A stretch of 64,000 bases of DNA from an uncultured Alphaproteobacteria bacterium (GCA_963713785.1 CAVQNB010000001.1:108191-172190); one strand, 5' to 3'; shown: positions 33,547 to 39,091, numbered from the stretch's first letter. Translations and numbers: made by a program. The notes: generated from the letters alone by a model not told the origin.

Positions 33547-33849
33547 ATGAATCTGTCTCCCCGCGAAAAGGACAAGCTCTTGATCTCGATGGCCGCCATG
33601 GTGGCGCAGCGCAGGCTGGAGCGCGGTGTCAAGCTCAACCATCCAGAGGCTATCGCCATCATCTCCGACTTCATCGTCGAGGGTGCGCGCGACGGCCGCA
33701 CCGTCGCCGATCTGATGCAGGCCGGCGCGCAGGTTTTGACGCGCGCGCAAGTCATGCCCGGCATTGCCGAGATGATCCACGACATCCAGGTCGAAGCGAC
33801 CTTTCCCGACGGCACCAAGCTCGTCACCGTGCACGAGCCGATCCGGTAG
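33547..33849 (+). CDS. ureA: Urease gamma subunit
   Basis: [34 protein letters not shown]. Confidence 0.97.
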
Positions 33850-33858
33850 GAGACCAAC

Positions 33859-34164
33859 ATGATCCCCGGCGAACTCTTCATCAAGGACGGCGAGATCGAG
33901 CTCAATGCCGGCCGCAAGACCGTGACGCTTTCAGTCGCCAATTCCGGCGACCGCCCGATCCAGGTCGGCTCGCATTATCATTTCTTTGAAACCAACCCGG
34001 CGCTGAAATTCGACCGAAAGAAAGCCCGCGGCATGAGGCTCGATATCGCGGCGGGCACCGCGGTGCGCTTCGAACCAGGGCAAACCCGCGACGTGCAGCT
34101 TGTCGCGCTCGCCGGCAAACGCACCATCTACGGCTTTCGCGGCGACGTAATGGGCAAGCTGTGA
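33859..34164 (+). CDS. ureB: Urease beta subunit
   Basis: [31 protein letters not shown]. Confidence 0.97.
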
Positions 34165-34192
34165 TCTTTGGCGATGTGAGCACGGTGGTCGG

Positions 34193-34634
34193 GCTCCCTC
34201 CCCCCTTGCGGCGGTGGGTTTGGGAGAGGGGTATGCCGCACACTCCAGTGGATGAGATACAGCGAGCCCGTGCCAAACAGCTACGGCGCACGATGACGCG
34301 CGCCGAAACCTTGTTATGGCGCCACTTGAAGGCAAATCGACTCGCAGGTCTCGGATTTCGTCGGCAAAGTCCGATGGGCAATTACATCGCGGATTTCGTC
34401 GCTCACTCCTGCAAGCTCGTCGTTCGATGTCGATGGTGAAAGTCATGATTTCGAGGAGCGTATTCGCCACGATGATCGCCGCGATCGATGGTTCGCGTCT
34501 CGTGGGTACCGCGTGCTGCGTTTCACCAATGACGATGTGATGAAGAATTTGGAAGGCGTTGTCATGGCGATTGGTCAGGCAGCGGAGCAAGCGGCACCCC
34601 CCTCCCTAACCCTCCCCGCAAGGGGGGAGGGAAC
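34193..34634. mobile_element. ~440-bp cassette: DUF559 gene between ~39-bp inverted hairpin repeats
   Basis: Left 34193-34232 GCTCCCTCCCCCCTTGCGGCGGTGGGTTTGGGAGAGGGGT; reverse complement of right 34596-34634 GTTCCCTCCCCCCTTGCGGGGAGGGTTAGGGAGGGGGGT; mobility is inferred. Confidence 0.7.
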
Positions 34635-34654
34635 TCTTCCGCCGATGGAGCGCG

Positions 34655-34668
<14 letters not shown>
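34233..34668 (+). CDS. DUF559 / Vsr-like endonuclease domain protein; one indel near 34424
   Basis: [21 protein letters not shown]...[14 protein letters not shown]...KLVV|DVDGESH...DDRRDRW...[12 protein letters not shown]. Confidence 0.85.
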
Positions 34669-36370
<1,702 letters not shown>

Positions 36371-37681: not shown

Positions 37682-38464
37682 GCGCGAGCCCGCGTCGACG
37701 ATCGCGAGCGGGATGAGCGGAAAGCGAGGCGGCGGCGCTGTACCGGCTGATGACCTGGCTGTCGCCGGCCTTTCCGGTCGGCGCGTTCTCCTATTCCAGC
37801 GGCATCGAATGGGCGGTGGAGGCCGGCGATATCGTCGATGCCGCCTCGTTGCGGGATTGGCTCGCCTCGATGCTCGCGGACGGCTCCGGATTTTGCGACG
37901 GCGTGTTCCTGGCGCAGGCGCACCGCGCCGCGTCGTTCGGCGACGACGGCGCCTTGCGCGAGATCGCCGAGCTTGCGGCCGCCTTCGTGCCGTCGCGCGA
38001 GCGGCAGCTCGAGACCTCGGCGCAGGGCCGCGCCTTCATCGAGATCGCGCGCGCGGCGTGGAATTGCGACGGCCTCGAGGCGATGATCGCGCATTGCGAG
38101 GGCACTGATCGTCTATCCCGTCGCGGTCGGTCTCGTCAGCGCCGCGCATGCGATCCCGCTCGCCCCCACGATGCACGCCTTCCTTCACGCGCTGACGTCG
38201 AACTGGATTTCGGCCGGCAGCCGGCTCATTCCGCTCGGGCAGACCGACAGCCAGCGCGTGCTGGCCGCGCTCGAGCCGGTCGTCGCCGCGACCGCAAGGC
38301 GCGCGCTCGCGGCGTCGCTCGACGATCTCGGCAGCGCCACCTTTCGCGCCGATCTCGCGAGCCTCCGGCACGAGACGCAATATACGAGGCTGTTCCGGTC
38401 AGATGCATGCATCGCTGATCTCGGCGGTGCTGGAACGATCGACGGGACGATCAATCGAGACTGA
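37662..38464 (+). CDS. ureF: Urease accessory protein UreF (indels; true stop probably near 38404)
   Basis: [41 protein letters not shown]. Confidence 0.9.
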
Positions 38465-38465
38465 C

Positions 38466-39091
38466 ATGGCACATTCTCACGGCCCGCTTCGCGATCGGCA
38501 TCGGCGGTCCCGTCGGATCGGGAAAGACCGCGCTGATGGACCTGCTGTGCAAGTCGATGCGGCGAGCGCTACGACATCGCCGCGATCACCAACGACATCT
38601 ACACCAAATGGGATGCGGAATTCCTGGTGCGCTCGGGCTCGCTGACGCCGGATCGCATCGCCGGCGTCGAGACCGGCGGTTGCCCGCATACCGCGATCCG
38701 CGAGGACGCCTCGATGAATCTCGCGGCGGTCGCCGACATGCGCGCGAAATTTCCCGATCTCGATCTGGTGCTGATCGAATCCGGCGGCGACAATCTCGCC
38801 GCCACCTTCTCGCCGGAACTCGCCGATCTCACGATCTACGTCATCGACGTCGCGGCCGGCGACAAGATCCCCTCCAAGGGCGGCCCCGGCATCACCCGGT
38901 CGGATCTTCTGGTGATCAACAAGATCGATCTCGCGCCGCATGTCGGTGCGTCGCTGGAAAAGATGGATAGCGATGCGAGACGGATGCGTGGCGAGCGGCC
39001 GTTCGTCATGACCAATCTGAAGAAGAGCGAAGGATTGGACCGCATCATCCGCTTCATCGAGACCAAGGGCGGCCTCAAGCCTTTAGCCTAA
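38466..39091 (+). CDS. ureG: Urease accessory GTPase UreG (indels in 5' part)
   Basis: [38 protein letters not shown]. Confidence 0.93.

Follow-up and report, generated by a model that had tools for sequence, protein, structure and literature searches.

The segment from about position 34173 to about 34650 of the window, the 64,000-nt stretch of DNA analysed here, is on balance probably one copy of a selfish cassette of ~480 bp, in which a DUF559 nuclease gene framed by inverted TM-type repeats (here called arms) occupies the ureB-ureC joint in the same direction as its neighbours and spreads in a homing-like manner. Arms and gene are precisely present or absent as one unit, different nuclease lineages can take the very same nucleotide of a host operon, and gene-less pairs of arms are scattered and polymorphic. 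In the sequences compared, each nuclease lineage also keeps to a single operon junction, apart from at least one change of locus in which the arms were retained. It is very probable that arms and nuclease gene move, or have moved, together as one unit. That its own nuclease drives this movement is possible, but somewhat less likely than not.

The insert between ureB and ureC

The ureB-ureC spacer of the window is 490 nt long and contains a DUF559 open reading frame (ORF) starting at ATG 34233 in the ORF listing. The family profile PF04480 matched this ORF in two frames, at 34233-34439 (66.9 bits) and 34426-34668 (43.3 bits), both above the cut-off of 20.6 bits, and the two matches meet at profile positions 58/59. 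A nuclease minigene between these urease genes had been proposed in the first-pass annotation, and the profile matches, flanked by inverted arms, bear this out. The features of the region are as follows, where G-numbers denote sampled genomes (G000 being the window genome) and L-numbers denote loci extracted from them.

33547-33849, + strand: ureA, urease gene upstream of ureB
33859-34164, + strand: ureB, urease beta subunit (Pfam Urease_beta, 161.7 bits), the upstream host gene
34161-34163, + strand: GTG that shares bases with the ureB stop (GTGA) and is in the reading frame of the DUF559 ORF across the left arm (ORF 34161-34439)
34173-34232, + strand: left arm, with an outer box (GATGTGAGCAC...) and a TM-type core at 34196-34231, ending directly 5' of the ATG; aligned with the arms of G015, G007, G024 and G041
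34233-34424, + strand: N-terminal part of the DUF559 gene, frame 0 (PF04480 positions 3-58, E 1.7e-18; 77% identity to the G015 orthologue)
34425, + strand: extra base (C, +1 frameshift) within the invariant VVEVDG catalytic motif, from alignment to intact orthologues
34426-34668, + strand: C-terminal part of the DUF559 gene and a tail encoded by the right arm, frame +1 (PF04480 positions 59-106, E 3.6e-11; 84% identity to G015)
34591-34647, - strand: right arm, an inverted copy of the left arm, with a TM-type core at 34597-34631 and a relaxed TM match at 34598-34631
34655-36370, + strand: ureC, urease alpha subunit (Pfam Urease_alpha and Amidohydro_1), the downstream host gene

The GTG at 34161 is a possible coupled start for the nuclease gene, because its reading frame continues across the left arm into the DUF559 ORF. 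The second frame of the gene extends over the right arm to a stop codon at 34666-34668, which lies 14 nt within ureC. The first-pass annotation had a single ORF running to 34668 and overlapping ureC; its stop position stands, and its clean reading frame gives way to one split by an extra base. No promoter- or terminator-like site was found when the element was scanned, and no target duplication was seen at the ure locus, in agreement with the first reading.

A single extra base had already been suspected, as a T at 34424, and alignment with orthologues retains it while changing its position and identity to a C at 34425. It coincides with residue E65, where the restored frame gives D rather than E, in an assembly that is error-prone. 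This assembly (6.95 Mb in 38 contigs, completeness score 73%) has pheS in three frames and pheT in five pieces (G000:C6:90117-93086), livF split in two (G000:C7:76105-76807) and, within the window, ureF (37750-38464) and ureG (38403-39091) also split by frameshifts. The pattern points to pervasive indel errors and not to real pseudogenes. Because pheS, pheT, ureF and ureG are likewise broken, the frameshift at 34425 may be an assembly error and the gene is not called dead; the window copy was either broken recently or, with about equal likelihood, is whole in the organism and disrupted only in the assembly. Two of the frameshift-split genes of this assembly are essential genes.

DUF559 is a very large family of 'unknown function'. 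The intact G015 orthologue was modelled with AlphaFold2 (pLDDT 87.5), and the model matched the DUF559 structure 3hrl (TM-score 0.68/0.85) and the I-Bth0305I structure 3r3p (0.64/0.76), with a weaker match to 1vsr; in a comparison of the nuclease profile with structures, E was 5e-35 for 3hrl and 5e-4 for 3r3p. The cassette protein is thus predicted to have a Vsr-like PD-(D/E)XK (EDxHD) alpha/beta nuclease fold, and E65, D67, H71 and D80 are invariant in 38 relatives. Of the two earlier statements about the family, the Vsr-like fold is upheld by the model, and the lack of an established role no longer fully holds in view of VsrA and the I-Bth0305I fold, both considered below. The nuclease is under purifying selection in relatives (dN/dS 0.05-0.19). 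Its third codon positions are less GC-rich than those of adjoining genes (GC3 0.67-0.69 vs 0.86-0.91), and in 65 of the 66 genome pairs compared at three loci its dS exceeds that of the flanks by a factor of 3-5, a difference that may come partly from this weaker codon bias and not from turnover.

The arms and their distribution

BoxC/PIT/TM repeats were already described in the 1990s, but to our knowledge neither a function nor a partner protein has been assigned to them. The arms of the window were found by an inverted-repeat search that paired 34183-34230 with 34597-34644 (48 nt, 71% complementary), and the sequences of relatives extend them to about 34173-34232 and 34591-34647, or ~60 nt each, so the inverted repeats of the first-pass annotation are real and longer than the ~39 bp given there. 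Each arm consists of a C-rich block followed, after a loop, by a G-rich block with which it pairs and, beyond a 3-nt turn, by another G-rich block. In the left-arm core the order is C-rich block, loop, degenerate G-rich block and then GGGAGAGGGG, and the repeat ends in GGGAGAGGGGT directly 5' of the ATG, as had been noted. The right-arm hairpin has a perfect 8-bp stem (-9.3 kcal/mol) and the left-arm hairpin is degenerate (-5.8 kcal/mol, not better than shuffles), folding energies that match the earlier description of a perfect right and a degenerate left copy.

Between genomes in which the silent sites of the cassette coding region have reached saturation, the arms are still 87-95% identical, so they are constrained or homogenised. 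In the arms of the type-B cassettes, described below, the stem CCCTCTCCC/GGGGGAGGG contains a T-G mismatch that is conserved and reads C-A on the opposite strand (L037, L040, L048, L057, L072 and L076). A T-G mismatch is the substrate of Vsr, and by this analogy the mismatch may hint at a feature recognised by the nuclease.

The consensus of the BoxC/PIT/TM repeats (CCCTCNCCC, 3-6 nt, GGGNGAGGG, 3 nt, GGGNGAGGG; Holder et al. 2015, PMC4666352) fits the arms of the G015 and G007 orthologues exactly. The window right arm fits a relaxed TM pattern with GGGAGGGGG as its third block, and the left arm is degenerate. By their block pattern, the window arms belong to this published intrastrand-triplex repeat family, within which the E. 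coli motif alone has been shown to form a triplex in vitro (PMC4666352). The published repeats resemble the arms in their three blocks, their intergenic position, their frequent arrangement as inverted tandem pairs and their occurrence at hypervariable loci (TMECO; PMC4666352), and differ in having no associated gene or mobility function, where here the repeats frame a nuclease gene. Holder et al. 2015 (PMC4666352) state that neither a transposase nor an integrase had ever been detected close to TM motifs.

The same arms occur at about nine other places in the window genome and nowhere in the reversed-sequence control, so the repeat is not unique, as the dispersed repeat family of the first-pass annotation implied. 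Eight of these places are gene-less head-to-head pairs of arms with a loop of 24-90 nt, folding into one long hairpin (-41 kcal/mol, z = -3.9). The only close DUF559 gene in the assembly is the window copy. A second DUF559-like domain (L090, G000:C7:14540-14824, 35% identity) forms the C-terminal part of a protein of ~400 aa and belongs to a different, older type, the long type found in most genus genomes; as a candidate second cassette it was rejected for its lack of arms, its C-terminal position and its distant type.

Three gene-less sites were compared with five relatives and every one was polymorphic, one relative being empty (11 or 19 nt), others carrying the same element and others again holding quite different palindromic repeat families. 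Coding remnants in the short gene-less loops were considered and rejected, the edges of the loops being only an inward extension of the inverted repeat (AGCCGC...GCGGCT); the exception is a 130-nt loop in G006, which has ~16 nt in common with the 3' end of the DUF559 gene. Three or more other, unrelated palindromic families (GTCATCCTGAGG..., CGTCATTCCGG... and GTCCCTGCGAAAGCAGGGAC...) occupy the same intergenic sites in different species, as seen in the ureB-ureC spacers L005, L008, L021 and L023 and at L091, L094, L099 and L102-L104. The short operon spacers of the genus are therefore landing sites common to several repeat families.

In the genus, the association of arms with DUF559 genes was scored as the best inverted repeat between 200 nt before and 300 nt after the DUF559 domain, with windows displaced by 900 nt as controls. 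PF04480 is present in 60 of the 61 sampled genus genomes, in 1-7 copies each and often in 3-7. Across 50 genus loci the median arm score was 51, against 20 in the controls (control maximum 30), and inverted arms beat every control at 47 loci. Among 28 loci from 28 other alphaproteobacterial families, the score exceeded 30 at 19, against none of 54 controls, and no arms were found in any of the 110 displaced controls of genus and class combined. The repeat enrichment around DUF559 genes anticipated in the first-pass annotation is therefore present at both scales, and chance inverted repeats are ruled out by the displaced-window and reversed-sequence controls. The left and right arms of one gene mirror each other yet vary between nuclease subfamilies, and their inner hairpins carry compensatory changes across the genus and class loci.

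The tests of whether the repeat goes with the gene, in the genus and in the class, were fixed beforehand. Type-A arms are present in all 18 genus genomes with a type-A gene (median at least 13 matches), and of the 43 without this gene 21 have no arms, the median being 1 among the matches listed. Five genomes without a cognate type-A gene (G024, G050, G061, G002 and G076) nevertheless have at least 16-23 arm matches, and one of them, G002, is arm-rich with no small DUF559 gene at all; the association in the genus is positive and the dependency is not strict. The class sample comprised 121 genomes of 121 families. Of the 30 genomes with DUF559, 20 contain the TM pattern, against 11 of the 91 without DUF559 (p = 2e-8; 10 of 90 when G116 is left out), and among genomes of at least 3 Mb the pattern is present in 16 of 21 and 3 of 23, respectively (p = 4e-5). 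A clear exception in the class is G127, with 18 TM motifs and no DUF559. The earlier proposal that a nuclease replaces RAYT and propagates the repeats would agree with the co-occurrence in the class and sits less well with the arm-rich genus genomes that lack a cognate gene.

It could be argued that TM/BoxC pairs are mobile or recombinogenic through an unknown host factor or their own DNA structure, and that DUF559 is cargo, or a parasite homing into pre-existing pairs, that does not act on the repeats. This is rather unlikely, but it would accommodate G127 and the five genus genomes in which arms are numerous without a cognate gene, the far greater number of gene-less than gene-bearing pairs, and the higher variability around TM sites in the absence of any mobility gene reported by Holder et al. 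2015 (PMC4666352). It is harder to reconcile with DUF559 being the sole cargo in the pairs examined, with nuclease lineages that are ~40% identical to one another and each have their own arm variant, and with how strongly repeat and gene occur together across the class. Nor would inert cargo be expected to have catalytic residues under purifying selection.

Occupied and empty operon junctions

Pfam and tblastn searches placed cassettes at ureB-ureC, pheS-pheT, glyQ-glyS and dnaN-recF, between two adjacent ABC ATPase genes (livG/livF-like), and at two further sites, cysS/HMGL and AMP-binding/DUF1499. Wherever the flanks were identified (ure, pheS-pheT, dnaN-recF, glyQ-glyS and livG-livF) the cassette is co-directional with its neighbours. 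At pheS-pheT, in both cassette types, and at livG-livF the nuclease ORF crosses the right arm to end in a stop that overlaps the next ATG (ATGA), at glyQ-glyS its stop abuts the next ATG, and at the ure loci it overlaps ureC by 10-14 nt; the dnaN-recF type alone stops before the right arm. With the nuclease stop on or near the next start, the cassette rebuilds the stop/start coupling that it interrupts, and the expression of the operon would thus be preserved. The non-polar insertion suggested in the first-pass annotation is supported by these stop/start overlaps, which involve at least five operons, the ORF ending at the next start in four.

The pheS-pheT junction is empty in G002 and G076, where the two genes meet in a bare GTGA stop/start overlap. 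At exactly this nucleotide, G041 carries a type-A2 cassette of 540 nt, and G007, G024 and G050 carry a type-B cassette of 612-621 nt, the protein of which is 43-46% identical to the query, the G015 ureB-ureC (type-A) copy. The pheS-pheT flanks are 89-95% identical among the genomes compared. A repeated TTCAY of 3-5 nt is a possible target duplication at this junction, and nothing comparable is present at ure. In the window genome, the GTGA junction of pheS-pheT holds at the same nucleotide an armless, frameshifted ORF with an ASCH domain (L141:840-1100, G000:C6).

The ureB-ureC junction also has an uninterrupted allele, an ATGA overlap in G001 and G004, and across the genus the spacer ranges from this 4-nt overlap to 1377 nt. 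Its forms include spacers of 0-58 nt, spacers of ~170 nt with another palindrome, spacers of ~580 nt with an HD-domain ORF, cassette plus HD ORF, and the cassette alone, as in the window. A comparison of this junction among relatives had been proposed at the outset, and the gene proves not to be fixed there. The HD_4-domain ORF, of ~180 aa, lies between ureB and ureC at L002:2367-2906 in G015 and is also found in G005, G008, G009, G023, G024, G002, G007 and G011; a solo left arm often precedes it, and it is missing from the window.

No near-identical cassette copies were found at different loci of one genome, and the copies within a genome are old. The dnaN-recF cassette region of G041 is doubled with 100% identity over at least 2.3 kb (L063/L064; G041:C16:433189-435506 and 1024693-1027010), and one of the copies lies near a contig end, either as a segmental duplication or as an assembly artefact. 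This pair was rejected as a case of recent transposition, since the identity spans the whole 2.3-kb duplication and is uninformative.

A maximum-likelihood tree was built from 48 nuclease sequences, omitting L002 (the same gene as L047), L064 (the duplicate of L063) and partial or interrupted copies. Locus labels change 7 times on this tree, the minimum possible, against a mean of 30 when labels are shuffled. The exception is pheS-pheT, where the type-A2 pair groups with the ure clade as its sister (support 100/98); one nuclease lineage has thus switched locus and retained its arms. Old vertical inheritance with losses would also yield locus-specific clades.

In a second and less likely alternative, the nuclease would be a domesticated host gene, a vertically inherited repair or defence enzyme similar to VsrA at fixed operon positions, and the arms would be cis-regulatory RNA stems or couplers that limit a toxic nuclease. 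The low dN/dS (0.05-0.19), the occurrence of each clade at one locus in many species, the start codon at the end of the left arm and the cellular phenotype of a Caulobacter DUF559 protein (PMC12907096) would all be expected under it. The precise empty sites would not, nor would two 45%-identical lineages at the same nucleotide between flanks that are ~90% identical, nor a lineage that switched locus and kept its arms. The GC3 of the gene is far lower than that of host genes, and the same arms are scattered without any gene. The distribution of C5 cytosine methyltransferase, present in 23 of 61 genus genomes against 60 of 61 with DUF559, often in 3-7 copies, further argues against this account. 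Programmed inversion of the DUF559 gene between its inverted repeats is highly improbable: long inverted repeats do flank the gene and a table row of PMC9881135 gives DUF559 an odds ratio of 14.3 among predicted inversion targets, but the gene is co-directional at all loci with identified flanks, no inverted copy was seen, no recombinase lies nearby and the stop/start coupling is functional in one orientation only.

Relation to known systems

The Y1/RAYT transposase (PF01797) had no match in the window genome and was found in 15 of the 61 genus genomes, none of them among the arm-rich ones. RAYT was therefore rejected as a mobiliser of the cassette, being absent from the window genome and every arm-rich relative, and the absence of a transposase stated in the first-pass annotation holds as far as Y1/RAYT is concerned. 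The cassette nevertheless resembles the REP/REPIN-RAYT system (Nunvar 2010; Bertels & Rainey 2011, PMC3116915, PMC3337134) in having a small gene between inverted structured repeats, the same repeat scattered as singlets and inverted doublets, a low gene copy number with largely vertical inheritance and a repeat variant for each enzyme lineage. To this extent the REPtron-like architecture first proposed is present, with a gene between inverted repeats that are also dispersed as singlets and inverted doublets. The differences lie in the enzyme, here a predicted PD-(D/E)XK Vsr-like nuclease and there an HUH Y1 (IS200-like) transposase, in the repeats, here three-block triplex-type motifs and there GTAG/CGTC REPs, and in the position of the cassettes within operons at stop/start overlaps. 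Gene and arms also appear to move together here, whereas RAYTs are thought not to copy themselves.

Free-standing homing endonuclease genes are known from phages, among them seg, mob and Hef. The cassette resembles these genes and I-Bth0305I (3r3p) in its catalytic fold, as modelled, in its position between conserved genes, in its precise presence or absence and in its lineage-specific sites (pheS-pheT, ureB-ureC and the nuclease tree). It differs in its host, a bacterial chromosome and not a phage or intron, and in having long structured terminal inverted repeats together with gene-less repeat pairs genome-wide. In comparison with IS/MITE-type transposons, the cassette has inverted repeats and no known transposase family, and its only candidate duplication is the TTCAY of 3-5 nt at pheS-pheT.

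The Caulobacter crescentus protein VsrA (CCNA_02930; PMC12907096) and E. coli Vsr share the domain family, and have a nuclease phenotype in vivo. VsrA has been functionally tied to a cytosine methyltransferase and read as a T:G mismatch repair enzyme (PMC12907096), in contrast to most genomes of the genus studied here, which have DUF559 genes without a C5 methyltransferase. Because this methyltransferase is present in only 23 of the 61 genus genomes, a classical Vsr role is unlikely for most DUF559 copies, and its sparse distribution weakens a Dcm/Vsr pairing for these genes. No published description of the pairing of DUF559 with BoxC/PIT/TM repeats was found; the nearest in print are Holder 2015, with repeats and no gene, the PMC9881135 table row, which reports DUF559 as enriched among predicted inversion targets, and the REP/RAYT literature.

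Under the preferred reading of a selfish, homing-like cassette, the nuclease would recognise its own arms or the uninterrupted junction and make a nick or break there, and repair of the break would then copy the cassette in. The gene-less pairs of arms would be non-autonomous or relic derivatives, related to the cassette as REPINs are to RAYT. More tentatively, DUF559 nucleases could be the missing partner enzymes of the BoxC/PIT/TM repeats, making the cassette the representative of a new class of prokaryotic elements in which a Vsr-like nuclease, and no transposase or recombinase, would move both the cassette and its gene-less derivatives. Such elements would be aimed at stop/start overlaps of co-translated genes in a way that spares the expression of the operon. 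The pheS-pheT and ureB-ureC junctions provide concrete substrates, which makes the proposed role of the nuclease directly testable.

If this account is true, bacterial transposition and homing would gain a new enzyme class in the form of a Vsr-like nuclease that drives a mobile cassette, and the cassette would offer an insertion module that is non-polar by nature and re-establishes translational coupling. It would also explain hypervariable operon spacers such as that between ureB and ureC, and the frequent appearance of DUF559 among 'predicted inversions'. The precise presence or absence of such cassettes at joints between paired housekeeping genes across the genus suggests a mobile element of a kind not yet described, whose nuclease could be the partner enzyme of the long-orphan BoxC/PIT repeats.
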